Notes under the pieces: model-generated
What the model was told of the DNA's origin: nothing
Databases searched by the model: none
Seen by the model: only the letters and a program-made list of their open reading frames with translations
Made by a program: the position numbers and the translations under genes
Assembly: GCA_002726235.1 (NCBI GenBank)
Contig: PBSN01000002.1
Coordinates: 138,540-158,539, forward strand
Direction of reading: 5' to 3'
Length of the DNA stretch: 20,000 bases
Origin: Nitrospiraceae bacterium
GTDB lineage: Bacteria; Nitrospirota; Nitrospiria; Nitrospirales; UBA2166
Shown: positions 2,605 through 19,170 of the stretch, in pieces
How the letters are laid out: the number at the start of each line of letters is the position of its first letter
Numbering within the stretch: position 1 is the stretch's first letter

Positions 2605-3515
2605 AAATCCTCGACAAACGTCTTGATTTCCAGTTCGATCGCACGCGCCTTATCACGAAGTCCAATTTCTGTGAGTTTGGCCTTGGTCAGATCAAAGCGG
2701 CTCCACTCTGCATTGTTGTCGCTTCCTGTCCCGTTATGCCAAAACTCGCGACACGTTCGAATGTTAATGATTGCAGGAAGCTGATCGGCTAACGTGGTTG
2801 TCCAATACTCGATCAACCACGGATCGTCGGTGATGTCCACGGCGTTTAACCCGAAGCCTTGCGCGACATCTACCACACTCCAGTTTCGCCGCTCAACCGT
2901 CGGAGTAAGGACTGAAAGATCGTTATCTTCACAAACGAAAAGAAGTGGAAGTTTCTTGGTAGCCACAAACCCAAGCGTGGCAAGGACGTAATCCTCTTCG
3001 GCGGCCCCGTCACCGAAAAAACATATCACCCGCTCACCTGGCGCCGCGAGGGCAATACCCGCAGCTACCGGCACTTGATCGCCAATCAGCCCGTTATGAG
3101 CGACGATTTTGCGTTCAAAGTCGTGTGACGGCGGTGAACCACCCATACCACCACAACAACCCGTGGACATGCCTAAAAGTTCGTCCGCAAGTCGTTCAGG
3201 TCGCCCACCGAATGAGAGGTAGACGGAATGGCCTCGATGCTGTCCGAGGACGTAGCATCCTTCCATCACAACCGCGACTGCTGCAGCAACCGCCTCCTGC
3301 CCAACAGAAAGGTAAATCAGACATTCAATATCGTTATCAAGCTGGGCTTGCCGAACACGCAAATCGAAATATCTTGTCAGGCACATTTTGCGAAACATCG
3401 CCAACGATCGTTCAGGTGAGCACGCCTCTGCAAGGCCTTCCATCATCCCCCAATCAGGCGAACGTACCATCCTTGGCTGTTGAGGCCCCTGCGCAATACC
3501 GCGTTCAATACTCAT
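2568..3515 (-). CDS. ThDP-dependent dehydrogenase E1 alpha subunit (pair 2)
   Basis: YLSVGQEAV, HRGHSVYL, GMGGS and the ThDP-binding motif FFGDGAAEE...FVCEDN. Start placed at ATG 3515 (MSIERG); TTG 3566 or a later ATG is also possible. Confidence 0.87.
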   Translation of the reverse strand: MSIERGIAQGPQQPRMVRSPDWGMMEGLAEACSPERSLAMFRKMCLTRYFDLRVRQAQLDNDIECLIYLSVGQEAVAAAVAVVMEGCYVLGQHRGHSVYLSFGGRPERLADELLGMSTGCCGGMGGSPPSHDFERKIVAHNGLIGDQVPVAAGIALAAPGERVICFFGDGAAEEDYVLATLGFVATKKLPLLFVCEDNDLSVLTPTVERRNWSVVDVAQGFGLNAVDITDDPWLIEYWTTTLADQLPAIINIRTCREFWHNGTGSDNNAEWSRFDLTKAKLTEIGLRDKARAIELEIKTFVEDLWNERLQRRSAI

Positions 3516-3566
3516 ATGCTTGATCCAAGCTTTAAAATCATACGGAAAAATGTCATGGGCCCACAA

Positions 3567-4727
3567 TCAGCCAACAATTCGATTCACAAGATTCACAATA
3601 TCGTCATCTACGATCATTTTCTTTTTGGCCGATAAATCCTTGAAGGACAAATAGACCTTATCGAAATCTTGCGGCCCGATGTCCAAACTCAATTCCATTA
3701 TTTTTGTCCGCAACGCATGCTTGCCGGATAGCTTTCCCAGCATAAGATCAAACTTTCGAGCCCCGACTGTTTCCGGCTCGATAATTTGATAGGTTTCACT
3801 GTTGCACAGCATGCCGTGCTGATGAATTCCAGACTCATGCTTAAACGCGTTCTCCCCGACAATCGCCTTGTTGGGTGCGACCCTCATTCTTGAGAGCGCC
3901 TCGACCAACTTGCTCGTTTCCAGGATTGCTTTGGTATTAATATCAGCCTGAACTCCAAATTGGGTCGGCCTAGTCTTTAGCGCCATGACAACTTCTTCCA
4001 TCGACGCGTTTCCTGCACGTTCCCCGATCCCGTTGATCGTGCATTCTGCCTGGCCTGCACCCGCGGCCAAGCCAGCCAACGTATTCGCAGTAGCCAACCC
4101 CAAATCGTCGTGGCAATGTGTAGATACCACCATATCTTTCACGCCTGCTACCTTGGCAAGTACGGTTTTGACGATCGAAGCATACTCTGTAGGGATGGAG
4201 TACCCTACGGTGTCTGGAATTTCTAATGTTCGCGCTCCAGACTCCCCCGCAACGGTAAAAACACTGCACAAGAAGTCCAGATCGCTACGTGTCGCATCCT
4301 CAGCTGCAAATTCAACATCCTCGACCAACGATCGTGCGAACGCAACGGTTTCTCTCGTAAGATCAATTACCTGCTCCCTAGTAAGGTTGAGTTTGTATTC
4401 TAGGTGCAAATCTGATGTCGCGAGGACAACCTGAATTCTTGGCTTAGCCGCTGGTCTGAGAGCTTCGTACGCGCACTCGATATCGCGCTTATGGGCCCTG
4501 GCCATGGAACAGATCGTAGGGCCATCTGGAGAACCAAGTTCCATGGCAATACGGTTGACTCCTTGAAAGTCAGACTCTGACGCTACGGCAAACCCTGCTT
4601 CGATAATTGGAACATTCATGTTCACAAGCTGACGGGCAATCTCCAGCTTTTCCTCGGGAAAAAAATTGACGCCAGGCGACTGTTCACCATCACGAAGCGT
4701 GATGTCATTTAACAGGATTCTTCTCAC
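3567..4727 (-). CDS. 2-isopropylmalate/homocitrate synthase family (DRE-TIM) acetyl-CoA condensing enzyme, short form lacking the regulatory domain
   Basis: DITLRDGEQSPG, IEAGF, ATSDLH, AEDATRSD, PDTVG, HCHDDLGLA, GIGERAGN, HESGIHQ and LGKLSGKH. Start likely GTG 4727 (VRRILL), giving 386 aa. It ends before the Leu-binding regulatory domain of canonical LeuA. Confidence 0.85.
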   Translation of the reverse strand: MRRILLNDITLRDGEQSPGVNFFPEEKLEIARQLVNMNVPIIEAGFAVASESDFQGVNRIAMELGSPDGPTICSMARAHKRDIECAYEALRPAAKPRIQVVLATSDLHLEYKLNLTREQVIDLTRETVAFARSLVEDVEFAAEDATRSDLDFLCSVFTVAGESGARTLEIPDTVGYSIPTEYASIVKTVLAKVAGVKDMVVSTHCHDDLGLATANTLAGLAAGAGQAECTINGIGERAGNASMEEVVMALKTRPTQFGVQADINTKAILETSKLVEALSRMRVAPNKAIVGENAFKHESGIHQHGMLCNSETYQIIEPETVGARKFDLMLGKLSGKHALRTKIMELSLDIGPQDFDKVYLSFKDLSAKKKMIVDDDIVNLVNRIVG

Positions 4728-4746
4728 GTTTTCACCATGAAAACCC

Positions 4747-5721
4747 TTATGTTGGGATTGATTCTCCGAGCAGGTTCTCACGATACCAACGTAACGTTTT
4801 TTGAATCCCCCCGTCGAGCGAGGTATTTGGCGTCCAGCCATACCGCGATTTCGCTTTATCGATATTCAAATCAAGCTTGAAACCTATGCTAGGCTTTGTT
4901 AAATCGAATTCGGCTTTTAAATCCATTCCTGAAAACTGGATCATCTTGTGGACGAGGTCTCGAACCGAGACTGATTTGCCTAACCCCAGATTGAGAAGTT
5001 CAAATGCCACGTTTTGCTTTTCTAAGGCCAGATGAATGAAGTCGATGAGGTCATCAACATAGAGAAAATCACGCTCATCAGTCCCGTCACCCCAAACCAT
5101 AATTTTTCCGTCCGTTGCAGTCAGTACCTTGGTCATCGTGGCACCAAATACATGTGATCGTTCCAGATCAAATTTATCGTGTGGGCCATAAATGTTTGAA
5201 TGGCGAAGCACGGTGTATTTCGTTGAGCCTATTTGAGAATAAAACTCACACATTTTTTCGTGATACACCTTGGTCCATCCGCTGGCAAAATATTTCTCGT
5301 GTAGCTCTCCATTAAAATCTTCTTCTTTCACCGGTTCTTGCTGCTCTTGATACATCACTGTGCAACTCAGAAAAACCACATGCCCAACTCCTGCCTCATG
5401 GCTGGCGCGAAACAGAAGCGCATTCATGATTACGTTATCGGTGACATGGATATATGGACTGTTAACAATATCTTTGGCGCCTGAGGTTGTTGCTGCGCTC
5501 TGAACAACAACATCCATACCCTGGACCACACGATATACATCATCTCGATTCGTCAGTTCGGCTTGAAGATATTCAACCGACGGAGTCTTATGAGGCACAT
5601 CTGCTAGGTTCTGCCTACAAGTAGCGTAGACGTCATAGGCCGCATCTTTAGCAAAATACTCACATAGATTTCGACCAATAAATCCTGTTCCGCCGCAGAC
5701 TAAGAGCTTCCGCCGCTTCAT
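4747..5721 (-). CDS. NAD(P)-dependent epimerase/dehydratase, GDP-L-fucose synthase (Fcl/ColC)-like extended SDR
   Basis: GGTGFIG Rossmann motif, NIYGPHDKFD..SHV, VWGDGTDERDFLYVDD. Start at ATG 5721 gives an ATGA overlap with the upstream stop; ATG 5730 is an alternative. Confidence 0.85.
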   Translation of the reverse strand: MKRRKLLVCGGTGFIGRNLCEYFAKDAAYDVYATCRQNLADVPHKTPSVEYLQAELTNRDDVYRVVQGMDVVVQSAATTSGAKDIVNSPYIHVTDNVIMNALLFRASHEAGVGHVVFLSCTVMYQEQQEPVKEEDFNGELHEKYFASGWTKVYHEKMCEFYSQIGSTKYTVLRHSNIYGPHDKFDLERSHVFGATMTKVLTATDGKIMVWGDGTDERDFLYVDDLIDFIHLALEKQNVAFELLNLGLGKSVSVRDLVHKMIQFSGMDLKAEFDLTKPSIGFKLDLNIDKAKSRYGWTPNTSLDGGIQKTLRWYRENLLGESIPT

Positions 5722-6686
5722 GTCTGACATCGTCCAATGTGTTTCTGATACCAATCAATCGTCCGCATCAGACCATCTCGAAGACTCACACGTGCTTCCC
5801 AACCCAACAGTTCTTTGGCTTTTGCTGGATCGGATACTCGATAAGGGATTGTCGCCGGTTTCTCAGGATCATACGTCACCGACACGTCAAGATGCAGGAT
5901 GTCCAAGATCACGGACACGAGATCCTTAATCGTGTATGCCTCCTTGGCGCTGATGTTTACCGGAGAGCATGTCGCGTTCGTGTCAAGATTGATCATCAGG
6001 CCATCGACCAAATCATCAACGTATGTAAATGATCGAATTTGCTTTCCGTCTCCCCATACCTCGAACGGATTCATCCCCTGTGTCGCCTTGACAATCAATG
6101 CCGGGATGACGTGACATTGATCGAGATTAAAGTTATCGTGCGGCCCGTAATACGCATTAGGGCGAACGATTGCATATCTTGTCTTGCTGGTCATGTGACT
6201 GTATCGACACAGCGTTTCCAGATAACGCGTTGTCCAGCCTATACCATAATTTGTGGGAATCCATGGATCACCTTGGAAGCCTTCACTTTCTACATTCGGT
6301 TTTCCCGTATCAGGATAGATATAACAGCTACTGATGAAACTACATCGATCCACCTTCATCTCTGCGGCCAGTACGATTAGTTTCGAATGTATATATAAAT
6401 AATCTAAGATGAGGCTCGCTGGATTAGCTTGGATCTCCTTGGCACCGCGTACTCTGGCGGCTGCAAGAAAAACAATATCCATATCCGCAAACGCTGCGCG
6501 AGCCTTATTCTCGTCCATCAAATCACAAGACATAACCTCCAGGTTCGCGTGCTGCAGCAGCACCTTTCGAGTCGTATACTGCGTCGCTCTGACGAACGCG
6601 CCTTGTTCGAGAAGTTTTCGCACGAGGCTTTGCCCAACCAAGCCTGCGCCGCCAGCGACAAGAACGTTTTTCCCTCGGTAAAACAT
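5718..6686 (-). CDS. NAD(P)-dependent epimerase/dehydratase, GDP-L-fucose synthase-like extended SDR
   Basis: GGAGLVG, FLAAARVRG, SSCYIYP, YYGPHDNF..CHVIPALI, VWGDGKQIRSFTYVDD. Confidence 0.85.
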   Translation of the reverse strand: MFYRGKNVLVAGGAGLVGQSLVRKLLEQGAFVRATQYTTRKVLLQHANLEVMSCDLMDENKARAAFADMDIVFLAAARVRGAKEIQANPASLILDYLYIHSKLIVLAAEMKVDRCSFISSCYIYPDTGKPNVESEGFQGDPWIPTNYGIGWTTRYLETLCRYSHMTSKTRYAIVRPNAYYGPHDNFNLDQCHVIPALIVKATQGMNPFEVWGDGKQIRSFTYVDDLVDGLMINLDTNATCSPVNISAKEAYTIKDLVSVILDILHLDVSVTYDPEKPATIPYRVSDPAKAKELLGWEARVSLRDGLMRTIDWYQKHIGRCQT

Positions 6687-6779: not shown

Positions 6780-7820
6780 CTAGAAAGGTCCTTTGAAGTT
6801 TTTTTCGTAACTGTAGAACGATTCCCCACTCAGATCGGAATGTTCAAGGCCTAACATGCGTTCGACCGCCTGAATGATCGTCACTGCTGAAGGATAAAAG
6901 AGGTTTTCCAAGGGGCGAGTCGTTGGACATGGCACAGACGCGAAACCAAACCGTTCTACCGGCTTCTCCAGGACCTCAAAACACCTGTGACTAATGAGCG
7001 CAGCCAATTCAGCCCCGAACCCACAAAACACCCAGTCATAGTCGACAACAAGGCAATGCCTGGTTTTCATGACGGATGAGGTGATCAGTCCCTCATCCAA
7101 AGGGGTAGCGGTTCGCACATCCACCACCTCCAACTCAACTCCTCGTTTAGCCAAAACGTCTGCCGCTTTCAATGCCTCAATGTTCATCCACGATGTCGCC
7201 ACCACGGTCAAAGCATCACCTGTCCGACGTATGACGGACGACCCGAGGGGAATTTCCTCTTCCTCATCCAACTCCCCTTCAACATCGTACAGCCACCGAT
7301 GCTCCATGAAAATCACAGGATTGTCATCGCGAATCGAAGACCTCAATAGGCTATAGGCATCTTGAGGCGTCGTCGGAAGAACAACTTTCAGACCGGGAAA
7401 ATGTGCAAATATCGAATGGAGTGATTTGCTATGTTGGGCCGACTGGCCCCACCCACGTCCGATGATAGCTCGAATCACTAATGGGATCTTCAGTCTGCCC
7501 GCACTCATATACCGCAGATTCGACACCATATTCGCAATCTGATTTATACCCAAAAGCATAAAATCCGCGCGGATATGTACGTGGACTGGCCTTAAACCTG
7601 AAGCGGCTGCTCCTAATGCAACACCGGTCATTGCATCCTCTGAGAGAGGGGTCCCAAAGCAACGATCCGTACCGAACCGCTCGACCAAACCACGCGTACT
7701 TCCAAATATTCGCTTGTGATCCGGCACATCGAGGCCAAACACAAAAACCGTCGGATCTCTTTCCATCTCCCGCGTGAGAGCGAGGTTTAATGCCTTGCGA
7801 AATGTCGTCAGCGATGTCAT
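6780..7820 (-). CDS. ThDP-dependent dehydrogenase E1 beta subunit (pair 1)
   Basis: TFRKALNLAL..EMERDPTVFVFG, TPLSEDAMTGVALGAA..GLRPV, QHS, PGLKVVLP, DNPVIFMEHR, EVVDVRT..PLD. ATGA overlap with the alpha gene. Confidence 0.9.
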   Translation of the reverse strand: MTSLTTFRKALNLALTREMERDPTVFVFGLDVPDHKRIFGSTRGLVERFGTDRCFGTPLSEDAMTGVALGAAASGLRPVHVHIRADFMLLGINQIANMVSNLRYMSAGRLKIPLVIRAIIGRGWGQSAQHSKSLHSIFAHFPGLKVVLPTTPQDAYSLLRSSIRDDNPVIFMEHRWLYDVEGELDEEEEIPLGSSVIRRTGDALTVVATSWMNIEALKAADVLAKRGVELEVVDVRTATPLDEGLITSSVMKTRHCLVVDYDWVFCGFGAELAALISHRCFEVLEKPVERFGFASVPCPTTRPLENLFYPSAVTIIQAVERMLGLEHSDLSGESFYSYEKNFKGPF

Positions 7821-8788
7821 ACGAAAACATCGGTGTACAGCTCCGATGGAGCAGGGAATGGCGCCTGTTTTGCGGCTTGAATGCTTCGAGCAATCTTTTC
7901 ATCCACCTCCGTTCGTATCGCGCGCAAGTCATCAAGCGAGCACTCGTTCCTGAGGAGATTTTTCTCAAATCGAAGAACAGGATCGAGACGTGCCATTTCC
8001 GTCGACGCCGGCCGAAGCCTATACCCCACATCGAAGTCTTCTGCTATGCCAACATGCTCGAGAAACCGCAGATACGTAAGATGAAGAAACCCAGGTTTTG
8101 GTTGCTCAGACATTTGCTCCACCATCTGACGTGTCATCATGATGACCTCTTGGACATCGCTCCCATCCCCACTCATGCAATAACACTCAAATCCCCCAAC
8201 AATTTCTGATATGGATCGAAAGCCTTGTCGCGCAGCTGAAGGGGTATGGATCGCTAGATTATTGTCTTCACACACAAACAGGATGCGAAGGCGATGCAAA
8301 CAAGCAAAATTCATGCTCTCCCAGAAGCTACCTTCTTCCACCGCACCATCACCAAAAAAGGCAACCGCCACGTCATCTGACTTCTTGTACTTGGCAGCAA
8401 ATGCTGCACCTACCGCTAACGGAATTGTTGTTCCAACGACGGCCGATGTTGCGACCAAACCGCTCTCCGGCGCGGAGAGATGCATCGACCCTGCTTTTCC
8501 TTTTCCTGCCCCTGTTGCCTTGCCGTAGAGTTCCGCAAAAAACCCATCAGTGTCATCGGTGAGCATCAGGTACAATGCGTGGTTGCGGTATGTTCCGAAA
8601 CACTGCGTTGCCTCTGGCACCCCAGATAAGACACCGACAGGTATCGCCTCTTGCCCAATACTCAGGTGAACTGGGGTTTTCATTCCATCATTGCCATATT
8701 CTTCGCGAATCTTTTCCTCCGCTTGCCGAATTAGGACAAGCTTCCGATACAGATAAAGCGATTCATCCGTACGTAACCGTGCCGTCAT
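7817..8788 (-). CDS. ThDP-dependent dehydrogenase E1 alpha subunit (pair 1)
   Basis: HLSIGQEA, TYRNH, GKAGSMH and the ThDP motif FFGDGAVEEGSFWESMN...VCEDN. ATGA overlap with the upstream PLP-enzyme gene. Confidence 0.9.
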   Translation of the reverse strand: MTARLRTDESLYLYRKLVLIRQAEEKIREEYGNDGMKTPVHLSIGQEAIPVGVLSGVPEATQCFGTYRNHALYLMLTDDTDGFFAELYGKATGAGKGKAGSMHLSAPESGLVATSAVVGTTIPLAVGAAFAAKYKKSDDVAVAFFGDGAVEEGSFWESMNFACLHRLRILFVCEDNNLAIHTPSAARQGFRSISEIVGGFECYCMSGDGSDVQEVIMMTRQMVEQMSEQPKPGFLHLTYLRFLEHVGIAEDFDVGYRLRPASTEMARLDPVLRFEKNLLRNECSLDDLRAIRTEVDEKIARSIQAAKQAPFPAPSELYTDVFV

Positions 8789-9951
8789 TGCACTGCCCCC
8801 AGAACTGTCTGTGAGATGAACGCTAAAGATTCCTCATTCAGAGAAGGATTGTTCGGAAGAAATAGCCCGCAACAATGAATCCGATCGGCCATAGGAAAAC
8901 GTGTCGTTCCGTACCTATCGGACCAAAACGGATGCAATCCAAGGTTTCCAGCTGAAAAAATTCTCGTCTCAATGCCGTTCCGCACAAGAGCAACAATGAT
9001 CTGCTTACGCTGTCCTTCACTCGCTGCCAGAAGACCAAACGAGATGCTCGCAACCTGACACTCTGGCTCGCAGCGCTGAACAGTGAATGTATCCCCAAGC
9101 CGTTGCATATAATAAGCGTGGTTCTCTTGCCGACGAGAGGTCATCCAGTCCAATTTTTCAAGTTGGACAAGCCCAATGAAGGCATTAAGGTCTGTTGATC
9201 GCAAATTAAATCCAGGCTCATAAAAGACAAAGGGTGCATGGAAATCATCAATATGGTGCTGTTTAAGCAACGATTGGTGATCCCTGCCATCTAGGTCTTT
9301 GCTCCAACCATGGCTCCTGAGCATCAGGAGTAAGTTGTTGAACGTTGCGTCATCAGTCGAGACCATGCCACCTTCTATCGTCGACATCTGATGACCAAAG
9401 TAGAACGAGAAACTCGCCATATCACCAAAACTGCCAACCTTGTTCCCCTTGTATGATGCCCCAATTGCAGCACAGGCATCCTCGAGCAAGAAAAAACCGT
9501 ACTTGTCTTTCAGCGCAAGCACCGCGTCCATCTTATGTGGCACACCAAGCACCTGAACCATTAGGACGGTGCTTGGTTCATACTCTTTAAGAAGGCTCTC
9601 AAGATGATCTAAATCAAGCCCAAAGGTGTCCGAATCGGCTTCACACATCACCGGCTCAAAACCAAACTGGATTGCCGGCGCAATGGAGGTTACCCAACCA
9701 ACACTGGGAACAATTACTTTCTTGTTCTTGAGTTTCCCAGACAGGAGAAGGGCATAGTACATGAGGAGGTTAGCTGACGATCCAGAATTGCAGTTGACCG
9801 AATAGGACCGGCCAAGCCACCGACTCCATTTATCTTGAAAGTCAATGGTAACGTCACCTTTCGTCAAGCGCGGATTTGTCTGTAGCCACTGGATCAAGCG
9901 AGCGATGTCCTTGGCATCGATGGTATCTTCAGCCAAGTGAAATTTAATCAA
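8785..9951 (-). CDS. DegT/DnrJ/EryC1/StrS-family PLP enzyme, ColD-type NDP-4-keto-sugar 3-dehydratase
   Basis: NSGSSANLL, LLEDACAAIGA, FSFYFGHQMSTIEGG (His at the Schiff-base Lys position), LRSHGW, PGFNLRSTD. TTG start with a GAAGAGG RBS; 388 aa. Confidence 0.85.
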   Translation of the reverse strand: MIKFHLAEDTIDAKDIARLIQWLQTNPRLTKGDVTIDFQDKWSRWLGRSYSVNCNSGSSANLLMYYALLLSGKLKNKKVIVPSVGWVTSIAPAIQFGFEPVMCEADSDTFGLDLDHLESLLKEYEPSTVLMVQVLGVPHKMDAVLALKDKYGFFLLEDACAAIGASYKGNKVGSFGDMASFSFYFGHQMSTIEGGMVSTDDATFNNLLLMLRSHGWSKDLDGRDHQSLLKQHHIDDFHAPFVFYEPGFNLRSTDLNAFIGLVQLEKLDWMTSRRQENHAYYMQRLGDTFTVQRCEPECQVASISFGLLAASEGQRKQIIVALVRNGIETRIFSAGNLGLHPFWSDRYGTTRFPMADRIHCCGLFLPNNPSLNEESLAFISQTVLGAVQ

Positions 9952-10013: not shown

Positions 10014-10778
10014 TCACTGTGCGCTTTCATTTTTGAGCGACAGCCCTCGGTCAGGTACATATCGAGCAAAAAACTGCTCAGCTGCCCTATATGATTCCGG
10101 TGTGCCCACATCTAAGAAATCCCCTTGGCTACGGCACCCATGCAACGTTTCGCCAACCCAGGCAGGAAAGACCTCACGTTCAAGTGATTCGGCGCCACTC
10201 GATACAATGTCAGACAACATCCGCTGAGAAAAAAGATACATACCCGCGTTGATCCAGCATCGTTCATCGGACGAATCTCCTTTATCGTCGCTTTTTTCTT
10301 TAAAACGAACAATGTGATCATGCTGATCCAAAACCACACTCCCATATCGCTCAGAATCGGGAACAGCCGCTAAGAGCAATGTGGCATCCGAACATCGGTT
10401 CCGATGACACGAAAGAAACAGACTTAGATCCGTCTGATAATACGAATCTCCGTTCATCACCAACACCACATCGGACTGGAGAAACGGGGCCGCCAAGCGT
10501 AGCGCACCAGCGGTTCCCAAGGGTTCTGCTTCCTGAGAATAATTGAGACGGAGACCACGATAAGTATCACCAAATGCTCCCTGAATCTGTTCGCCGAGAT
10601 AGCCCGTACACAAGACAACGTTCTTCAGGTCTCGCTCAACCAACACATCGAGGAGATACGAAAGAAATGGCCGTCCTCGCACCATAGCCAAGACCTTTGG
10701 CGTATCGGCAACGACCGATCGAAGCCGCGTGCCTAACCCCCCTGCCAAAATCGCTGTTGTGATTTGGTCACTAGACAT
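10014..10778 (-). CDS. hddC: Sugar-1-phosphate nucleotidyltransferase, D-glycero-alpha-D-manno-heptose 1-phosphate guanylyltransferase (HddC)-like
   Basis: ILAGGLGTRLRSVV...PK, GRPFL, EAEPLGTAGAL, NGDSY, INAGMY, SLEREVFP, FLDVGTPESY. Start ATG 10778 overlaps the upstream stop by 8 bp. Heptose context comes from the GmhA-like and Cj1427-like neighbours. Confidence 0.8.
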   Translation of the reverse strand: MSSDQITTAILAGGLGTRLRSVVADTPKVLAMVRGRPFLSYLLDVLVERDLKNVVLCTGYLGEQIQGAFGDTYRGLRLNYSQEAEPLGTAGALRLAAPFLQSDVVLVMNGDSYYQTDLSLFLSCHRNRCSDATLLLAAVPDSERYGSVVLDQHDHIVRFKEKSDDKGDSSDERCWINAGMYLFSQRMLSDIVSSGAESLEREVFPAWVGETLHGCRSQGDFLDVGTPESYRAAEQFFARYVPDRGLSLKNESAQ

Positions 10779-11703
10779 TCCCAAATTCGCCACGTCCAAG
10801 CATACGAAACCCCTTTAACAACTCGCGTATGCCCCCTTCAAGAGATCGCTGTGCGCGAAACCCTGCTTCTGCAAGCCTTTGGCTTGACACAATATAATTC
10901 CGTTTGTCGCGATCACTCCCAATTGGTGCAAAATGGAGGTAAAAAGCTGGAACCTGTTCCTTGATTTTCAGAGCAAGCTCTTCTTTTGAAAGATTCGCCG
11001 TATCAAGTCCTGCGTTATAAGAATGTCCGACCATCTGCTGGGCGTTCTCGATGCAATGCACCACACACGCCGCAACATCTCGAATATGAATAAAGTTCCG
11101 CTTGAACTCCTTTTCAAAAATGACCAGATAGCTCGAAGAAAAAGCCGCATAGGTAAAATTATTGACCAAAAGATCCATCCTCATACGTGGCGACATTCCA
11201 AACACCGTGGCAAGTCGCAATGTAATCACATTGGGAGTGCTCAAAAGTTCTGCCTCGGCTTGGACTTTCGTCCGACCATAGAGCGAAATGGGTTCTAATG
11301 GCGTGTCTTCAGTGCAATAGCTATCACCCGATTTAGTTCCATACCCACTGTTCGTTGTTGGAAACACAATTAATTGCTCCGGACTCCTGATACGGTTGAG
11401 CAGTTGGACGGCTTCCAGATTGACGGCCTGAGCCATATCGGGATCACAATCACATGCCGGCGCCCCGACAATGGCAGCAAGCGGGATAAGGACATCTGCG
11501 TTCTTGACATGGTTTCCCAGAAGCGTTTTATCACGTGCGTCACCTAACACAAATTCAAAGTGATCATTCGCGCAAAAATGAAATAGGCTATGTTGCCGGT
11601 AGAGCAAATTATCAATAACAGTTACGTGATAACCAGCCAAAAGAAGATGCTCGCATAAAACCGAGCCTAAATACCCCGCCCCTCCTGTAATAAGAATTTT
11701 CAT
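10771..11703 (-). CDS. NAD-dependent epimerase/dehydratase, Cj1427/WcaG-like GDP-D-glycero-D-manno-heptose 4-dehydrogenase
   Basis: MKILITGGAGYLGS, IPLAAIVGAPAC, PTTNSGYG, CTEDTPLEPISLYGRTK (YxxxK), RLATVFGMSPRMRMDLLVN, RNFIHIRDV, ANLSK, DKRNYIVS. As recalled, these motifs run collinear with Campylobacter jejuni Cj1427. Start ATG 11703 gives 310 aa. Confidence 0.85.
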   Translation of the reverse strand: MKILITGGAGYLGSVLCEHLLLAGYHVTVIDNLLYRQHSLFHFCANDHFEFVLGDARDKTLLGNHVKNADVLIPLAAIVGAPACDCDPDMAQAVNLEAVQLLNRIRSPEQLIVFPTTNSGYGTKSGDSYCTEDTPLEPISLYGRTKVQAEAELLSTPNVITLRLATVFGMSPRMRMDLLVNNFTYAAFSSSYLVIFEKEFKRNFIHIRDVAACVVHCIENAQQMVGHSYNAGLDTANLSKEELALKIKEQVPAFYLHFAPIGSDRDKRNYIVSSQRLAEAGFRAQRSLEGGIRELLKGFRMLGRGEFGNV

Positions 11704-11825
11704 TAGTGTGAAACTTTCACGAGGACAAGAGGTCGTTGAATCAACCACGGCCAGCACCTGCAAAGGCTATCCCCCATGCTACGCAACGGCTGCACAATCT
11801 CGCACCGGACTATAAGCACAATATT

Positions 11826-11912
11826 CAAATCAATCCCTCTCTCCTCTGCCACTTGCAGCAACATGCCTGCTTTCAGTTTGCCACGGGCACACTCAGTGCA
11901 CTCAACGTGCAT
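11826..11912 (-). pseudogene. Probable remnant of a gmhB-type D,D-heptose 1,7-bisphosphate phosphatase
   Basis: Translation HVECTECARGKLKAGMLLQVAEERGIDL resembles the GmhB segment CxH...CxCRKPxPGMLLxAAxxxxIDL. The N-terminal DxDG and the downstream MVGD motifs are missing. It lies in a 303-bp gap next to other heptose genes. Confidence 0.5.
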
Positions 11913-12006
11913 AGAGTAAGCACTTGCAACTTAGCCATTTATGTCCGAAAAAACAGAAGACGATATGGGCCTCTGCCCGAAGCCACAAGCATCACAACCT
12001 GTCATA

Positions 12007-13791
12007 TTAAGTCCGTACGACTTTTTCCCTGCGCCGATTGAGCATGGTAGCAGGGCTCCCCTCTTCCACCATGCGGCCATGCTCCATCCGATACACGCGG
12101 TCGCTGTGTGCCACAGTACTGACGCGATGCGCGACGATCAAAATAGTCTTGCTCCCTCGAAGTGCTGTGACGGCCTGCATTATTCCACTCTCAGTGTCGG
12201 TGTCGAGCGCACTGGTGGCCTCATCCAACACCAACACGGCAGGATCGTGGTACAGCGCCCTAGCAATGCCGATTCGCTGACGCTGACCACCCGATAACCG
12301 AATACCGCGCTCGCCGACCATAGTCTCCAGCCCTTGAGGTAGGCTATCGATAAACTCTTCCAATTGCGCGGATTGGATCGCACGCTTCACGGCAACATCA
12401 TCGATCTGTTTGTTGGGCAATCCAAACGCGACATTACGCTTTAGAGTATCATCGGTAAGATAAATGGACTGCGGCACGTAGCCGATTTGGTCTTGCCAAG
12501 CGCGCAGATCCTGTTGGATGTCTTGCCCATCCACTGTGACCATCCCGGAGTTTGGAGTGAACAACCCTAGGATCACATCCACCAGCGTGCTCTTGCCTGC
12601 GCCACTTGGACCAATGAACCCTACAGTTTCACCTTTTTGGATGGTGAGCAACAAACCGTTAAGTGCTGATGACGATGCACCCGGATAAGCGTAGCTGACG
12701 TTGAAGAGTTGAATATGGGTTTGGAGAATTACAGTGTGCTTCGTTTTTATGGCAGGCTCGGGTGCGTCAAGCCGAAGTTCCTCGAACATGAGATTGATCG
12801 CCGGTCGGCTATACCGAAGACTTTGGACAGACCCCAGCACCCGACTCACCGATGGCATCAGCCGAAACGCGGCTGCGGCAAAGAGCCCCAGCGTAGGCAG
12901 AATGCTAGCTGCGTCGCGTCCTTGAGCCAGCATGGTTAACACCAAGGTGGCCAGGCCCGTTACGGCAAGTAGTTCAATCCATAGGCGAGGGAGTGCCTGT
13001 AGCGTAGCCTGATATCGACTAACCTTGGCGCCTTGAGTGTTGTGCTCGCGATATTGCGCGAGGAAATCGCCCTCACGGCCAAGCAATTTAACATCTTTCA
13101 CGCCGCCTAGCCCCTGCATTAGATGTTGTGTGGATAGCCCGGCGTGATATATACGCAACTCGCCCCAACTCAGAATATAGCGACGCGTGATGTGATGGAA
13201 AATCCAAGCAGCGCTGCCAAGTACCAACGCAACGATTAGCGCGCCTATTGGTTCGACCATGAGCAGAAGTACCGTGATGCCGACAAGCACCAGACATTCG
13301 GTCAACAGTGCCATGCTATAGAGAAGCGTATTCCTAAACACGCCCACTTCATGGGTGGAATTGCGGATCAACTGTGCCGAGTTTCGTTGAAGGTGAAACG
13401 TATAGGGCTGACGCAGATAGGTGGTAAATAGTCGCTGCGAAAGCTGCACTAGCACATCGTTCGCAAAACGCTGCTGCATCCACGTAAAATAGGAGAGAAA
13501 CGAGTTCTTGCAGAGATAAATACTCACCAGCGCCAACATTCCACCTGTGATGAGTTGGACCTGAGTGGGATTACCCAACATATGCAGCACAGGTTGGACC
13601 TTCGGGTAGCTTACAGCGATGTCGTCTTGGACAAGCAATGCAATGACAGGAATGACTAACCCAATGCCCAGAGTTTCCAAGATCATGCTAATGCCCGTGA
13701 GTCCCAATAACACCAATGCATTCTTGCGCTGAATGGAGGTAAGCAGCATCCAGACTTTAGCACCGGAGCTTATTTTCATTTTTACCGGCAT
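12007..13791 (-). CDS. ABC transporter permease/ATP-binding fusion, PglK/Wzk/MsbA-like glycan flippase or exporter
   Basis: N-terminal hydrophobic helices, YLRQPYTFHLQRNSAQLIRN, FAAAAFRLMPS, Walker A GPSGAGKS, Q-loop GYVPQ, signature LSGGQRQR, Walker B VLDEATSALD, H-loop VAHR. Confidence 0.92.
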   Translation of the reverse strand: MPVKMKISSGAKVWMLLTSIQRKNALVLLGLTGISMILETLGIGLVIPVIALLVQDDIAVSYPKVQPVLHMLGNPTQVQLITGGMLALVSIYLCKNSFLSYFTWMQQRFANDVLVQLSQRLFTTYLRQPYTFHLQRNSAQLIRNSTHEVGVFRNTLLYSMALLTECLVLVGITVLLLMVEPIGALIVALVLGSAAWIFHHITRRYILSWGELRIYHAGLSTQHLMQGLGGVKDVKLLGREGDFLAQYREHNTQGAKVSRYQATLQALPRLWIELLAVTGLATLVLTMLAQGRDAASILPTLGLFAAAAFRLMPSVSRVLGSVQSLRYSRPAINLMFEELRLDAPEPAIKTKHTVILQTHIQLFNVSYAYPGASSSALNGLLLTIQKGETVGFIGPSGAGKSTLVDVILGLFTPNSGMVTVDGQDIQQDLRAWQDQIGYVPQSIYLTDDTLKRNVAFGLPNKQIDDVAVKRAIQSAQLEEFIDSLPQGLETMVGERGIRLSGGQRQRIGIARALYHDPAVLVLDEATSALDTDTESGIMQAVTALRGSKTILIVAHRVSTVAHSDRVYRMEHGRMVEEGSPATMLNRRREKVVRT

Positions 13792-13802
13792 GCGGCGACC
13801 TG

Positions 13803-15863
13803 TTATCGTGGAAATGCCTCCTTCACGCCACCATCAATGGGAAGCATCGCACCGGTGGTTTTTGAAGTGCGGTCGGATGCAAAAAACAGCACAGCTTCAG
13901 CCACATCCTGAGCTGATATTCTCACTTTCAACAAATTCCGTTCGCTACAGTAACGCTCAAGATCGCTAACCCGTATACCATACGCCTTAGCACGCGCATT
14001 GCGCAGTTCACCCGACCAAAGGTCGGAACCCTCAAACACGCCATCCGGATTCACCATATTCACCCTCACCCCAAACTCTCCCCCTTCAATGGCGAGGATA
14101 CGTGATAGTTGGGCCTGAGCAGCCTTCGAAGCCGAATATGCGCCAAAGTCTTTTCCAGGTGCAAGAACGTTCTTTGTCGCCACCACCACAATGTTGCCCC
14201 CAATACCTTGCCTTTTAAAGATACGCATTGCCTCCCGACATATGAGGAAATGTCCAGTGGCATTAACGGCAAAACTATCGGCCCAGTCATCTAGCTGGAT
14301 ATTGTCGACCGAGGCACTGCGAGCAATCCCAGCATTGGAGACCACAATGTCAAGGCCACCAAAGACCAAGATTGCTTTTTGAACCGCCTCTGCGACGTTT
14401 TTTTCGTTAGAGACGTCCATTGGAATAGCAACGGCAGTTTCCTCCCCAACTTGCTTATTGAGTTTGGAAGCAAGTGTGCAAAGCTTTGTCTCATTCACAT
14501 CAGTAAGGACGACAGAGACACCTGCTGCCACAAGCCGTTCAGCAATAGCTCGACCAATTGCGCCGGCAGCACCAGTGACGAGCGCAATACGACGGGAAAG
14601 TTCCTTCTCGGAAGGTGCCAAGGTAAGCTTATAGTTTTCCATAGGCCAATATTCAAAATTACACATCTCCTTGGACGAGATTGCGGTATAGGAATTAATG
14701 GCTGAGGCATTAAAAATGACGCGCATTGTATGGCAATACAGATCATGAGCGATTCGTGCTGCGCGCCGATCCTTTCCCGTCGTGAAAAGACCAACCCCCG
14801 GGACGAGGATGATCCGAGGGATAGGATCCAGCATAGTTACCCCAGGAGTTTTATACCGCTCGAAATATTTAACATATTCTTTTTCGTAACCCACTACGGC
14901 TTTCTGTACAATCCGGTCAATTGCGCTCGCAGTACATTCCTTTGGAAGCTGCAAGAAAAGAGGCTTAGGCTTCGTATGGATCAGGTGATCTGGAGTAAAT
15001 GGCCCAATCTGGGAGAGCCTTTTCGCCCTGGGATCATCAACAAACGCCATCACCAACTCGCTGTCATCGTACGTGACCAGCATGCGCTTGTACTTGCTAA
15101 TCGCCCCTCGAAGAACGGGCAGCAATTGCACAGCACGAAACCGTCGTGCCCCAACCAAACGGATTCCTTCTCTCCGCTGACGTCTACGCGATGAACCTCT
15201 GACCCTCCCACCTATGAAACACTCCGCTTCGGAAACCATTTTGATTGTCTCTAAGTATGCAACTTTGGGTGAATCCCCCCAAGTGACCAAGCCATGTTTA
15301 TCAAGGATAATGGCGCGAAGAGTGGGATGACGCCGATATGTTTCACCAACCTGCTTTGCCAACAGAAACCCTGGACGGATATACGGGATGACCGCTACAT
15401 CATCGCCATAGATGGTGTGTATAAGTTTTGAGCTATCCAACGTATCCGTAAGCGTACAAATGGCATCGGCATGAGTATGATACACATGAGCTGGCGGAAG
15501 GAAGGCGTGCAGAAGCGTCTCAATAGACGGCTTAGGCGCAGTCAAATCCAATACGCATTGGGTTTGATACGCAACCATGCTCTCATCAGACATCTCCTTC
15601 CGGTCCCAAAGGACCAGCAGTTCGTCTAGACGAAGGGGCGTGAATTGCTTCTGGGTTATCGTCCGCATATCTGAGCCACTCCCTTTGATCCAAAGCACTC
15701 GGGTTTTGCGTCCCACATGATCCAACATGGTATCTTTCATAGACGAGTTCCCACCTCCCCAAAGAACCAACTCTGGGTTTGACCCAATCGCTCGACTGGC
15801 GTAGACCAGGAGATCCAACTTCTTGAAGGTTTTAGCAACTTGATTCGACCACTGACTTCTCAT
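13803..15863 (-). CDS. rhaD: Bifunctional class II aldolase / short-chain dehydrogenase (rhamnulose-1-phosphate aldolase/alcohol dehydrogenase, YuxG/RhaEW-like)
   Basis: N-terminal aldolase domain: GGGNSS, IKGSG, PSIETLLH, HTHADA, HGL, TPDH. Linker EYWPME. C-terminal SDR: TGAAGAIG, NAG, YSASK, VNPDGV, DGG. GAGG RBS before ATG 15863. Confidence 0.88.
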   Translation of the reverse strand: MRSQWSNQVAKTFKKLDLLVYASRAIGSNPELVLWGGGNSSMKDTMLDHVGRKTRVLWIKGSGSDMRTITQKQFTPLRLDELLVLWDRKEMSDESMVAYQTQCVLDLTAPKPSIETLLHAFLPPAHVYHTHADAICTLTDTLDSSKLIHTIYGDDVAVIPYIRPGFLLAKQVGETYRRHPTLRAIILDKHGLVTWGDSPKVAYLETIKMVSEAECFIGGRVRGSSRRRQRREGIRLVGARRFRAVQLLPVLRGAISKYKRMLVTYDDSELVMAFVDDPRAKRLSQIGPFTPDHLIHTKPKPLFLQLPKECTASAIDRIVQKAVVGYEKEYVKYFERYKTPGVTMLDPIPRIILVPGVGLFTTGKDRRAARIAHDLYCHTMRVIFNASAINSYTAISSKEMCNFEYWPMENYKLTLAPSEKELSRRIALVTGAAGAIGRAIAERLVAAGVSVVLTDVNETKLCTLASKLNKQVGEETAVAIPMDVSNEKNVAEAVQKAILVFGGLDIVVSNAGIARSASVDNIQLDDWADSFAVNATGHFLICREAMRIFKRQGIGGNIVVVATKNVLAPGKDFGAYSASKAAQAQLSRILAIEGGEFGVRVNMVNPDGVFEGSDLWSGELRNARAKAYGIRVSDLERYCSERNLLKVRISAQDVAEAVLFFASDRTSKTTGAMLPIDGGVKEAFPR

Positions 15864-16011
15864 AGAAACCTCGCTGATCTATACAGTACTACCACGGAGA
15901 GGGCCACATGACCTTCGCGTTCTACATACATAGAGAACCCCATACGTCCTCGTCATAGAAACGGGCTCTACGCTCTTCAGACGTTCCCGTCATTGGAGCC
16001 TCCAAAGACCG

Positions 16012-17313
16012 TCAGTTGTGCAGTGTTCGCTGTGCATCATCCCCGGTCGGCTGATTCTCCCAATGTAAGTCATCATGAATCCCATCGGAAACCCATTTTG
16101 CAAAGGCAAGTGCAGACGTCATGCCCGGCGAAACAACATTGAGGATGTGAATGGATCGTGGAGTGGCTTCAACAACGAGATCTTCGACAAGCCGTCCATC
16201 CTTGTTGATAAGTTGCGGTCGAATCCCCACACGCCGATCGAGTGTGAGATCCTGCAGGCATAGACCAGAGACAAGACAACTCGCCTCTTTAAAGAAATGT
16301 TTTTTGCTACATGAATGTCGCAACTCGTTCCATGCGACCCCAATCAACTCCTGATTGCGTATCAACGCGTTCCAGATCCCTCTGTGCCACACCATTTCGA
16401 TCATATCCTTGGCGTTAATCGCAAACTTGTTGTACGCCTCACGACCAAAAGCTGGGACAGCGTTTGGTCCGATCAATACCGATCCCGCAATGGTCCTGGT
16501 CAGATGTACACCCAAAAATGGAACCAACGCGTTAGGAACTGGATATACCATCGATTTTATGACCGGGTCGTCGGCACGATTGACGACAAAATATTCACCT
16601 CTAAACGGTGCCACCACGTAATTTCGTGCAAGTCCCATCGTGTGTGCTAAACGGTCGGCGTAAAGACCCGAACAGTTGATCATAAACTGAGTTGAAAAGC
16701 GGCGACTCCTAGTGTGCAGTGTAATCGCCTGGGCGGATTCTTCAATCCGAACGACTTCCTTCCCCAACGCCACAGTGACTCCTAATTGGCTTGCGTCCTC
16801 TGCCAAGGTCTGTGTTAGTGCAACGGAATCTACGATAGCCCCGGTGGGAGAAAACAGTGCTGCAACACCTTTAACATTAGGCTCCTGCCTACGCACGTCT
16901 TCCATAGATAATATCTCGATCCCTGGAACTCCGTTCTCATCACCCCGGCGTTTCAATGTATGGAGAACGGGGACCTGACTCTCATCCGTAGCTACCACAT
17001 AGGTTCCAACCTGTTCATATGGAACCTGCCTCTCTTTGCACAACTCTCGAATTGCCTTGCTGCCTTCAACGCAAAGTTTTGCCTTCAGAGTCCCAGGCCT
17101 TGGATTGAAGCCAGAATGAACAACACCGCTATTCCTTCCGCTAGTGTGAAACCCAACTGACGTCTCCTTTTCCATTAGAAGAACGTTTCCAAAACGCCTG
17201 CCAAGTTCACGCGCGAGCGCACAACCAATGACTCCACCACCAATAACCACAATATCGTAAAAAACGTCGTCACTGTTCACGAGTGTCAAGGGACGGAAAT
17301 TTGAGACACTCAT
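16012..17313 (-). CDS. lhgO: L-2-hydroxyglutarate oxidase/dehydrogenase (FAD-dependent)
   Basis: VIGGGVIG FAD motif, HTSGRNSGVVHSG, GTLKAKLCVEG, INCSGLYADRLA, PFRGEY, VYPVP...PFLGVHLT, GPNA, GIRPQ, NVVSPGMTS. Confidence 0.85.
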   Translation of the reverse strand: MSVSNFRPLTLVNSDDVFYDIVVIGGGVIGCALARELGRRFGNVLLMEKETSVGFHTSGRNSGVVHSGFNPRPGTLKAKLCVEGSKAIRELCKERQVPYEQVGTYVVATDESQVPVLHTLKRRGDENGVPGIEILSMEDVRRQEPNVKGVAALFSPTGAIVDSVALTQTLAEDASQLGVTVALGKEVVRIEESAQAITLHTRSRRFSTQFMINCSGLYADRLAHTMGLARNYVVAPFRGEYFVVNRADDPVIKSMVYPVPNALVPFLGVHLTRTIAGSVLIGPNAVPAFGREAYNKFAINAKDMIEMVWHRGIWNALIRNQELIGVAWNELRHSCSKKHFFKEASCLVSGLCLQDLTLDRRVGIRPQLINKDGRLVEDLVVEATPRSIHILNVVSPGMTSALAFAKWVSDGIHDDLHWENQPTGDDAQRTLHN

Positions 17314-17553: not shown

Positions 17554-19170
17554 TCAAATACGGCTAGCAAGATTGAGATCACCTAATGTATCCACATCAG
17601 CCCAATGGCCACGAATATACTGAATCGTTACTGGAATATCCTGTTCGACAAGAGCATTTAACAGGTCCGCTAACGACATTTGTTGGAATGCTGGGACAGA
17701 GACAAAACGATCAATACACGTCTTCACATGATCCAGCCCACGCTTAGAGAGTTTCATCATTCCAATCCACTCTCCATCAAACGCAAGAGTCTGATCAGGA
17801 GCAGTACTGACCATTCGTTTTAGAACGACCCTATCCTCTAATAAATAGGAACCGCTATCACGGTGGCTAGCGTAGACATAGTCTGATTCCCGCGCGAGGT
17901 GCGTCCGCCCTTCCCAGCCAGAGTCAACGGTTAGGACAATATCATCCTGTTCGCGAATGAGAAGATCGAGGATGTACGGTTTAAAACAAATATCGCCATA
18001 GGCGATCACCACGTTGCTTGAAACCAAGTCAATGGCTTTCGCCAAAGAAACCATTTCACCAGTGCTCTCATACTCTTGGTTTTCTACAACCTTCACTTTT
18101 GGGACATCAATCATTTCCCTGAGATATCCGGCTACAACGATGATATCGTGGATATCATTAACCCATAATGCGTTGACCATTCGCTCTAAAATAGTTTCAT
18201 TGCCTAGTTTTATCATCGCCTTAGGAACATGTTCCGTAAGCTTCCCAAGCGCCAAACCTCGACTCGCCGCAAGAATAATGGCGGAATGTGCATTGTTTGC
18301 AGTGGCCAGATACCGTTTCTCGGCTTCTTGCAATTCATCATCGCCTTGGAGACGAAACACTTCCCCAAGTGAAGAAATTTGATCTTCGACGTTGAGCAAA
18401 TTCTCGTCTACATAAATTCTGGCAGCAACCTCCTGCATTTTTCTAATAGCTCCACGTAGCAGATGATTTGCCCAAATAACGATTGAGACCTTACGTTCTC
18501 GGAATCCCGCTGTGGGCGTTGTGTAATACTTTGTCGGCACCAGAAGAACCGGCAAACGATTGGCCCATTCTTTGAGAAATGAAAAAACTTCCGCAGGATC
18601 TGAGTGTTTACTGTGAATTAGAATGGCATCTGCCCCAGCACGTCGGTAGGCCTCGGCGCGTTTCATGGCCTCTCCTAAGCCCCATCCCGCAATAAACGCT
18701 TCGATTCTCGCGGTAATCACGAAATCATCATCCCGCTGAACATCTTTCCCTGCCTTGATCCGGCCACAAAACTCATCAATATCAGCGAGAGGCTGCTTTT
18801 CCTCCCTCAAAAAACTATTGGTCTTGGGAAATACTTTATCTTCGATGCAAACCCCTGCAATGCCCCGTTGTTCTAACTTTTTGACAAACCTCCGCATGTT
18901 ATTGAAGTTACCATGCCCAGTATCGCCATCTAATAAAACTGGAATAGACACTGCATCGTTCATGAATTCAACGGCTTCCAGAACCTGGGTCCAACTGATT
19001 TCATTGTTGTCACGAACTCCAAGGGATGCCGACACGGTGAGGCCACTTCCCCAGATGCCTTGAAACCCAGCATCCTCCACAATCTTCGCGGATAATCCAT
19101 TGTGCGCTTCCATTAAGAAATCCAGTTGATCTCCTGAAAGCATTTGGTGCAAACGTGTCGTTTTTTTCAT
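17554..19170 (-). CDS. pepM: Phosphoenolpyruvate mutase fused to a C-terminal LicC/PntC-like nucleotidyl(cytidylyl)transferase domain
   Basis: [21 protein letters not shown] and the PepM signature [10 protein letters not shown] (EDKxxxxxNS), then ARIEA, VPTKY, IWANH. C-terminal domain: AIILAASRG...PKAM, VAGY, YGDI, GEWIG, WADVDT. Confidence 0.95.

Follow-up and report, generated by a model that had tools for sequence, protein, structure and literature searches.

The closest precedent for the gene pair considered here is the coupling of WbpB to a D-2-hydroxyglutarate (D-2-HG) dehydrogenase in Pseudomonas aeruginosa. According to the available text of PMC8651671, WbpB is a nucleotide-sugar dehydrogenase that holds its reduced nicotinamide cofactor (NADH) tightly and is reoxidised by reducing 2-oxoglutarate (2-OG) to D-2-HG; the D-2-HG dehydrogenase (D2HGDH) clears that product, as in the SerA-D2HGDH pair of the same organism, and its loss lowers the lipopolysaccharide O-antigen. 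In Campylobacter jejuni, Cj1427 holds a non-exchangeable NADH, which is reoxidised by 2-OG with formation of L-2-hydroxyglutarate (L-2-HG), and the HS:5 C3-dehydratase, which was used alongside Cj1427, converts glutamate to 2-OG and ammonia (available text of PMC10680097). The subject of this work is a stretch of 20,000 nt from a Nitrospiraceae bacterium (assembly GCA_002726235.1, contig PBSN01000002.1, positions 138,540 to 158,539; hereafter the window). In it, a gene for a Cj1427-type extended short-chain dehydrogenase/reductase (SDR; 10771..11703) and one for a flavin adenine dinucleotide (FAD) flavoprotein of the LhgO family (16012..17313) lie 4.3 kb apart on the minus strand. It is proposed, with a probability of about 0.68, that the two enzymes form a 2-OG/L-2-HG recycling loop in a nucleotide-heptose glycan operon; such a loop is considered probable because the pairing of LhgO-type and Cj1427-type genes recurs in many bacterial families.

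The likeness to the C. jejuni Cj1427/Cj1430/Cj1428 pathway, with its HS:5 C3-dehydratase, lies in the Cj1427-type SDR, a ColD-type dehydratase, GDP-fucose-synthase-like (Fcl-like) reductases and HddC-, HddA- and GmhA-like genes; the chemistry carried over would be the C4 oxidation paid for by conversion of 2-OG to L-2-HG, as described in the available text of PMC10680097. What differs is the LhgO-type gene in the operon. No L-2-HG-removing enzyme is named for C. jejuni in that text, in which no mention of an oxidase, of regeneration or of neighborhood was found and the single occurrence of 'recycl' refers to the recycling of NADH with 2-OG. Further components of the window's locus that set it apart are E1-type thiamine-diphosphate (ThDP) enzymes, B12 radical S-adenosylmethionine (SAM) enzymes, a PhyH-family oxygenase and a second 2OG-Fe(II) oxygenase, and a phosphoenolpyruvate (PEP) mutase. 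From the Pseudomonas system the locus differs in the enantiomer (L rather than D) and in the fold of the sugar dehydrogenase (an extended SDR rather than GFO/IDH/MocA). In addition, producer and consumer share an operon here, whereas the Pseudomonas D2HGDH gene, PA0317, is not assigned to the wbp cluster in the available text of PMC8651671.

A full-text literature search that covered main articles returned no paper on L-2-HG recycling tied to Cj1427, heptose or glycan loci, and thus no L-2-HG/Cj1427 version of the Pseudomonas coupling. D2HGDH and LhgO belong to different flavoprotein families. The canonical context of LhgO is the csiD-lhgO-gab operon; in Escherichia coli, the L-2-HG producer CsiD and LhgO are encoded side by side, and LhgO returns the 2-OG consumed by its partner. 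That pair is catabolic (glutarate/lysine), with an Fe(II)/2-OG dioxygenase as the partner, whereas the partner proposed here is a biosynthetic SDR.

The dehydrogenase and the flavoprotein

The open reading frame (ORF) at 10771-11763 opens with TTG; an ATG at 11703 yields a 310-aa protein, residue 2 of which is aligned to residue 4 of PDB entry 6vo6. This protein matched 6vo6/6vo8 with 350 bits (E 1e-103, 308 residues), and the next chain scored 81 bits. It is apparent that the SDR is by far nearer in sequence to solved Cj1427 than to any other SDR with a structure. The motifs 'ITGGAGYLGS' and 'LYGRTK', aligned with 'ITGGAGYIGS' and 'EYGIDK' of 6vo6, are presumably the N-terminal glycine-rich NAD motif and the catalytic Tyr-x-x-x-Lys of SDRs. 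The 6vo6 entry was deposited as a 'putative sugar-nucleotide epimerase/dehydratase'; we take it to be Cj1427, an assumption in keeping with the structure paper to which PMC10680097 refers. By analogy with the C. jejuni enzyme, the 310-aa SDR is proposed to be a nucleotide-heptose C4 dehydrogenase that is reoxidised by 2-OG.

The flavoprotein gene starts with ATG and encodes 433 aa. Its product matched the Pfam family DAO (201.8 bits) and the NCBIfam model NF008726, 'L-2-hydroxyglutarate oxidase', the latter with 401.8 bits against a cut-off of 299 and over model positions 1-387 of 389. The Drosophila L-2-HG dehydrogenase (L2HGDH) structure 8w75 was matched with 244 bits, and the second-best NCBIfam model, type 2 glycerol-3-phosphate oxidase, reached 199.5 bits (cut-off 460). 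In the Drosophila enzyme (dmL2HGDH), 2-OG is contacted by Ser88, Tyr289 and His302 (C1-carboxyl), His92 (C2 oxygen) and Arg393 (C5-carboxyl); replacement by alanine abolished activity or reduced it strongly at four of these contacts and approximately halved it in R393A, and His302 is not among the binding residues given as conserved in glycerol-3-phosphate oxidase (available text of PMC10726252). The kcat/Km reported for this enzyme is about 6e4 per M per s. In a HMMER alignment, S62, H66, Y257, H270 and R365 of the window protein correspond to S88, H92, Y289, H302 and R393, respectively. The five side chains are invariant in a five-member alignment of its clade and were kept in 22 of the 25 LhgO-type proteins compared, the exceptions being three copies from genus g20. 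With LhgO (E. coli YgaF) and the L2HGDH enzymes of Drosophila (8w75) and human, the window protein thus shares the DAO fold, a passing score with NF008726 and the five binding side chains; it differs from canonical LhgO in its separate glycan-locus clade (98/95), its score (402 against 588 bits) and its glycan operon context. On these sequence features, it is proposed to be an L-2-HG dehydrogenase/oxidase.

The putative third participant is encoded at 8785..9951 (minus strand) and resembles the pyridoxal phosphate/pyridoxamine phosphate-dependent 3-dehydratases of the ColD type. The best solved match is ColD (2gms, ColD/WbdK; 173 bits), and the RfbH model scored 199.6 bits (cut-off 423). The segment 'FGHQMSTIEGG' is aligned with 'YSHHIATMEGG' of ColD, such that the His of the window protein falls on the first His of the ColD 'SHH'. 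That column is presumably the one occupied by the Schiff-base Lys of sugar aminotransferases, and its His presumably the catalytic one. By analogy, a ColD-type enzyme would release 2-OG and ammonia from glutamate. An earlier reading, made from the sequence alone (hereafter the sequence-only reading), had recognized a Cj1427-like SDR at 10771-11703, an LhgO homologue at 16012-17313 in the same co-oriented cluster and a ColD-type enzyme. These calls are borne out by the gap between 350 and 81 bits, by the NF008726 score and the shared strand, and by the ColD match with a His at the presumed Lys column, respectively.

In the scheme proposed, a large surface-glycan operon, whose 5′ part lies in the window, would build a nucleotide-heptose with extensive tailoring; the sugar, the activities of the two enzymes and the acceptor of the electrons are all inferred. 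As with the C. jejuni enzyme, the SDR and its tightly held NAD+ would oxidise the nucleotide-heptose to the 4-keto sugar (at C4), and the resulting enzyme-NADH would be reoxidised by 2-OG with release of L-2-HG. The ColD-type step would then convert the 4-keto sugar and glutamate to the 3-deoxy-4-keto sugar, 2-OG and ammonia, while the flavoprotein would oxidise L-2-HG back to 2-OG and reduce an acceptor, the electrons passing to quinone or O2. The net effect would be that the sugar electrons leave via flavin, that 2-OG stays catalytic and that the unfavourable sugar oxidation is pulled forward. The inhibitory by-product L-2-HG would also be kept from accumulating near the aminotransferases and 2-OG oxygenases of the locus.

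Linkage of the two genes across the phylum

Both proteins were used to search 401 genomes of the phylum, with thresholds of E ≤1e-30 for Cj1427-type and E ≤1e-40 for LhgO-type matches; the former were found in 68 genomes and the latter in 126. Genome G000 and five genomes in which all matches were below 45 % identity were left out, and 62 genomes with a Cj1427-type gene (21 genera, 12 families) were kept. The two genes were found within 10 kb of one another on one contig in 11 of these genomes (G225, G188, G296, G364, G405, G234, G273, G408, G233, G372 and G070), representing 8 of the 21 genera and 8 of the 12 families. The chance expectation is approximately 0.7 genomes (20 kb of genomes of at least 1.6 Mb), and the binomial tail, by genome or by genus, is about 1e-10. 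Relatedness among the genomes makes this figure too optimistic, which counts against the proposal and is the reason that genus and family numbers are given. Co-location of LhgO-type and Cj1427-type genes exceeds chance, and the enrichment of lhgO near Cj1427 homologues that the sequence-only reading had suggested looking for is therefore present. An LhgO-type gene anywhere in the genome was found in 56 of the 62 genomes with a Cj1427-type gene and in 69 of the 338 without one, a contrast that is confounded by phylogeny.

In G070, G234, G225, G273, G188 and G408, which come from five families, the genes form a cassette in the order LhgO-like, HddC-like, HddA-like kinase, ColD-like and Cj1427-like. 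The exceptions are that the ColD-like gene is missing in G408 and that a B12 radical-SAM gene lies between the LhgO-like and HddC-like genes in G188. Genes for Fcl-like SDRs, E1 alpha/beta subunits and B12 radical-SAM proteins usually come after the cassette. In G372, 2 nt separate the Cj1427-type stop codon from the LhgO-type start codon.

The canonical GDP-mannose 4,6-dehydratase (GMD) was used as a control. Among the matches listed (150 of 241, so that the counts are lower bounds), at least 10 of 190 genomes, from at least 4 of 91 genera, had an LhgO-type gene no more than 10 kb away, and all of these listed pairs fall in the window's own taxonomic order. At the genus level, the comparison of 8 of 21 (Cj1427) with at least 4 of 91 (GMD) gives a Fisher p of 1e-4, which is too optimistic for the same reason of relatedness.

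Among 61 genomes of the window's order, an LhgO-type match was found in 23, in a close tier of 63-82 % identity (G004, G002, G001, G010, G019 and G022) and a distant tier of 30-41 %. The gene is sporadic, being present in 4 of 18 genomes of family f4 and 1 of 19 of family f3. Of the relatives in the same genus, G004 has the window's gene order minus the PEP mutase gene, and G001 has the order NusG paralogue, winged helix-turn-helix, LhgO-like, Cj1427-like, HddC-like, SIS, NUDIX and DegT, with the LhgO-like stop codon and the Cj1427-like start codon overlapping by 4 nt. An impression gained from the 61 near relatives, that there was no linkage outside the genus, was overturned by the wider phylum sample. 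A search of genome contigs with the single flavoprotein gave just one match, weak and irrelevant, with 40 residues aligned at 45 % identity.

A maximum-likelihood tree of 25 LhgO-type proteins contains a short type (100/100), the window's clade (98/95) and a second glycan-locus clade (100/99), to which the canonical pair is sister on an unstarred branch. The window flavoprotein thus lies outside the canonical LhgO clade, in a starred clade of its own. All three groups include members linked to a Cj1427-family gene; the label for this linkage changes six times on the tree, and the starred branches force at least four changes. This points to repeated recruitment, or frequent gain and loss, of the flavoprotein. 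A 370-aa DAO-family type, which keeps the five L-2-HG-binding residues, occupies the place of LhgO in the heptose cassettes of families f18, f20 and f25 (L079 11716-12837, L080 8551-9669, L081 7725-8834, L082 10773-11888 and L083 8365-9480). It scored 214-244 bits with NF008726 and approximately 200 with the type 2 glycerol-3-phosphate oxidase model, below both cut-offs.

Weighing the recycling loop against other explanations

Several observations weigh against the recycling loop. In 51 of the 62 genomes there is no LhgO-type gene within 10 kb of the Cj1427-type gene, so any coupling can work in trans. Among near relatives, no LhgO-type gene was found within 690 kb on the same contig in 13 genomes of families f2 and f3 that have a Cj1427-type gene (50-56 % identity). 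Glycan-locus copies of the flavoprotein scored 282-409 bits on the LhgO model (cut-off 299), as against 588 for copies outside glycan loci (G060 and G368), and genus g20 has copies beside Cj1427-type genes that have lost one or two binding residues. The sugar itself is uncertain: the HddC-, HddA- and GmhA-like genes of the locus reach 142, 115 and 65.5 bits against NCBIfam cut-offs of 300, 600 and 209, respectively, so 'heptose' is a proposal based on the match to Cj1427 and on the accompanying genes. A GmhB-like gene (130.3 bits, cut-off 149.6) lies outside the locus, on contig C8. The link is also not exclusive, in that some glycan loci that open with an LhgO-like gene have no relative of Cj1427 close by. 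As for the g20 copies (L072 11484-12746, L073 11652-12905 and L074 8891-10132), one has Ser in place of the binding Arg, a second has Ser for Tyr and His for Arg, and the remaining one has Ser for His; the g20 genomes hold a second LhgO-type gene elsewhere, which suggests decay or a change of substrate in the cassette copies.

A metagenome scan with the clade alignment gave 50 loci, which, with the window and four genome loci, formed 37 groups at 95 % identity; 32 of these were at least 55 % identical to the window flavoprotein, and L071, which had too short a match, was left out. At least 20 of the 32 groups have a co-oriented NusG-paralogue gene upstream, often with a winged-helix gene before it (Pfam assignments confirmed for examples), and the window's contig stops just short of this region. 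Examples of the NusG paralogue (PF02357) and winged-helix (HTH_24) genes are found in L017 (9294-9797 and 10085-10465), L023 (7556-8041), L040 (221-595) and many of L024-L063; the LhgO-like gene is first or near-first after the pair, and the later genes vary. Downstream contents include PhyH, DegT and NeuB; a cytidylyltransferase, GFO/IDH/MocA and DegT; SDR, HldE-like, SDR and GFO/IDH/MocA; and an aldolase/SDR with an ATP-binding cassette (ABC) exporter. In a further variant, a 5u4q-like epimerase-family SDR (beside a UDP-sugar dehydrogenase gene), the LhgO-like gene, PseB and NeuB follow one another. Each such region looks like a specialised antiterminator-controlled hypervariable surface-glycan locus. 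Of the groups with at least 5.9 kb downstream, 8 of 13 hold, within 10 kb, a region best matched by the Cj1427-like probe (at least 100 bits). Three of the weaker SDRs (32-37 % identity) still find their best structural match in Cj1427, the next chain scoring lower, with 161 against 115 bits in L047, 192 against 118 in L033 and 113 against 93 in G115.

These loci suggest another explanation: the LhgO-like gene may be a general head gene of variable glycan loci, inherited with the NusG-type antiterminator, its nearness to a Cj1427-type gene being incidental. It would then serve a need common to many glycan pathways or be the cell's only L-2-HG repair enzyme. The NusG-LhgO synteny does imply that part of the gene's position could be inherited, and the variability downstream agrees with such a role, as does the lack of a Cj1427-family gene within 10 kb in 5 of the 13 well-flanked groups. 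One of those five, G010, has a distant Cj1427-family SDR 25 kb downstream (122.6 against 83 bits). In genus g5, the LhgO-type gene belongs to a glycan locus (GT4, LhgO, RmlA-like, RmlB-like and, later, GMD and Fcl), and the Cj1427 cassette is approximately 700 kb away. The RmlB-like SDR was considered as an explanation for this placement and rejected, as it is by similarity an ordinary 4,6-dehydratase (351 bits). The window's flavoprotein gene is, moreover, the only LhgO-type gene found in its 90.65 %-complete genome (G000) and may for that reason also serve general metabolite repair. On the other side, other LhgO-type lineages are found within the Cj1427 cassette in families that lack the NusG-LhgO synteny (8 of 12 families, with a fixed order in five), the gene is sporadic in f4 and f3 rather than core, and the GMD control is much weaker than the result for Cj1427. 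An incidental association is accordingly judged unlikely. The sequence-only reading had regarded lhgO as a dedicated co-substrate recycler; the recycling part of that idea gains from the enrichment and the binding residues, but the enzyme need not be 'dedicated', as this is the genome's only LhgO and relatives occur in glycan loci without a close Cj1427 gene.

The flavoprotein could also have shifted to another 2-hydroxy acid or a polyol phosphate, and so be a glycan tailoring enzyme rather than a recycler, acting for example on a glyceryl, lactyl or 2-hydroxyglutaryl substituent or on glycerol-3-phosphate that feeds the neighbouring class II aldolase. Such a shift would fit the second place of the glycerol-3-phosphate oxidase model, the scores of glycan-locus copies well below canonical LhgO (with the 370-aa type below both cut-offs) and the aldolase/SDR fusion that adjoins the gene here, in G004 and in the metagenome loci L038/L065. 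It is nevertheless improbable: the side chains that contact 2-OG are conserved at all five positions, among them the His that is not given as conserved in the glycerol-3-phosphate oxidase GlpO in the available text of PMC10726252, the score with the oxidase model is far under its cut-off, and the aldolase fusion is absent from G001 and most other loci. Least probable of all is a role in a phosphonate branch with the PEP mutase fusion encoded 240 bp upstream, for instance in oxidising phosphonolactate. In favour of such a role, the isopropylmalate-synthase-like gene further down could, by analogy, encode a phosphonomethylmalate-type synthase. The SIS and LhgO-like genes are direct neighbours, with no PEP mutase gene between them, in G004, G002 and L023, and the gene is also missing from the G001 locus. 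Homologues in same-genus relatives are only 35-39 % identical and lie on other contigs, G004 has none, and no PEP mutase match was found in the other 50-odd LhgO-like loci examined, save for contigs identical to the window. The phosphonate link is thus largely refuted by synteny, and the absence of the gene from orthologous loci marks it as a strain-specific insertion outside the redox loop.

In G010, the module around the distant SDR comprises SIS, HAD, transaldolase, SDR, SDR, HldE-like and GFO/IDH/MocA genes. Modules of this kind (SIS, in some cases HAD and transaldolase, SDR, HldE-like, distant Cj1427-family SDR and GFO/IDH/MocA) were observed in L034 (3640-8182), L047 (6773-11368) and L097 (2055-8502), the distant SDR lying at 9352-10401 in L047 and at 4004-4999 in L097. 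These HldE-like modules adjoin the LhgO-like gene, except in G010, where the distance is 25 kb; their composition suggests an ADP-heptose version of the C4 oxidation. In G115 (L084 6873-11965), the order is RmlA-like, LhgO-type, RmlC-like, weakly Cj1427-like SDR (113 against 93 bits) and RmlD-like, an arrangement that may be the equivalent, for a dTDP-hexose, of the dehydrogenase/epimerase/reductase trio. The GFO/IDH/MocA genes beside LhgO-like genes were considered as WbpB-like producers of the substrate, an idea that was not adopted since WbpB makes the D enantiomer.

The remainder of the locus and the meaning of the pairing

The window is the final 20 kb of contig C2 of a genome of 1.87 Mb in 27 contigs, and all 16 of its large ORFs, including every ORF of at least 300 aa, are on the minus strand. 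Because it lies at the contig end, the operon is cut just upstream of the first visible gene. That gene, the first of the locus still on C2 (19326..19901), encodes a SIS-domain sugar-phosphate isomerase that is weakly GmhA-like (Pfam SIS_2, 45.7 bits; NCBIfam gmhA, 65.5 bits against a cut-off of 209). It is followed by the PEP mutase/nucleotidyltransferase fusion (17554..19170; TIGR02320, 378.3 bits, cut-off 319.55; NTP_transf_3), which suggests phosphonate decoration on this strain's glycan. Between the flavoprotein and SDR genes lie those for a bifunctional class II aldolase/short-chain dehydrogenase (13803..15863; TIGR02632, rhamnulose-1-phosphate aldolase/SDR, 724.9 bits, cut-off 567.75) and an ABC exporter of the PglK/MsbA type (12007..13791; ABC_tran and ABC_membrane; PglK model 333.9 bits, cut-off 1000).

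Downstream of the SDR gene is one for an HddC-like sugar-1-phosphate nucleotidyltransferase (10014..10799; NF049965, 142.2 bits, cut-off 300; NTP_transferase, 108.5 bits), which accompanies the Cj1427-type gene in the phylum cassettes as well. Beyond the ColD-type gene are ThDP-dependent E1 alpha (7817-8788; E1_dh, 158.1 bits) and E1 beta (6780-7820; Transket_pyr and Transketolase_C) genes, a pair (6780..8788) that is predicted to add, probably, a carbon branch to the sugar. Two Fcl-like SDRs (5718-6686 and 4747-5754; NF047922, 152.2 and 134.5 bits, cut-off 500; Epimerase, 130.5 and 148.2 bits) are candidates for completing the sugar, as 4-keto reductases or as epimerases. A short isopropylmalate-synthase-like gene (3567-4841, 424 aa) matches only the first approximately 382 of 516 model positions, so that its product appears to lack the regulatory domain. 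A second, more diverged E1 alpha/beta pair (1696-3566) and hemN (100-1524) complete the window. The two E1 pairs and the isopropylmalate-synthase-like protein raise the possibility that C-C bonds are formed with the sugar or phosphonopyruvate as the substrate; the Cj1427 cassettes of other families also contain E1 pairs.

Downstream of the window, the locus continues in the same orientation (L003 2297-16572). This part includes three genes for B12-binding radical-SAM proteins, a gene type that also occurs with the Cj1427 cassette in other families, and a PhyH-family oxygenase gene; Pfam gave no match for three of its ORFs (191-438 aa). Further on are a TIGR04324 'sporadic carbohydrate cluster' 2OG-Fe(II) oxygenase (64.5 bits, below the cut-off), an aldo-keto reductase and a GMD-like dehydratase, and the downstream end holds genes for an HddA-like GHMP kinase and a class I/II aminotransferase and a GFO/IDH/MocA-like gene.

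The need of Cj1427 for 2-OG was found in vitro, and the cellular fate of the by-product is not addressed in the available text of PMC10680097. A recurrent flavoprotein gene in the cassette would constitute independent genomic evidence that this ping-pong chemistry is physiological. The pairing would account both for the driving of an unfavourable sugar oxidation and for a low level of an inhibitor of 2-OG-dependent enzymes in a locus that encodes several of them (the ColD-type enzyme, aminotransferases and two 2-OG oxygenases). As a tentative generalization, the 2-OG/L-2-HG couple may be a modular soluble redox shuttle, built into nucleotide-sugar operons on at least three separate occasions and with three different lineages of flavoprotein, so that a 'stuck-NADH' C4 dehydrogenase could pass its electrons to the respiratory chain. 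In that case, the presence of an LhgO-like gene in a glycan locus would predict an unrecognised 2-OG-dependent sugar dehydrogenase, and candidates are the distant Cj1427-family SDRs beside HldE-like (ADP-heptose) or RmlA/C/D (dTDP-hexose) genes in L034, L047, G010 and G115. The gene could then serve as a simple marker for further such dehydrogenases in unexplored glycan loci, and the loop would tie surface-glycan synthesis to central carbon metabolism and the electron-transport chain.

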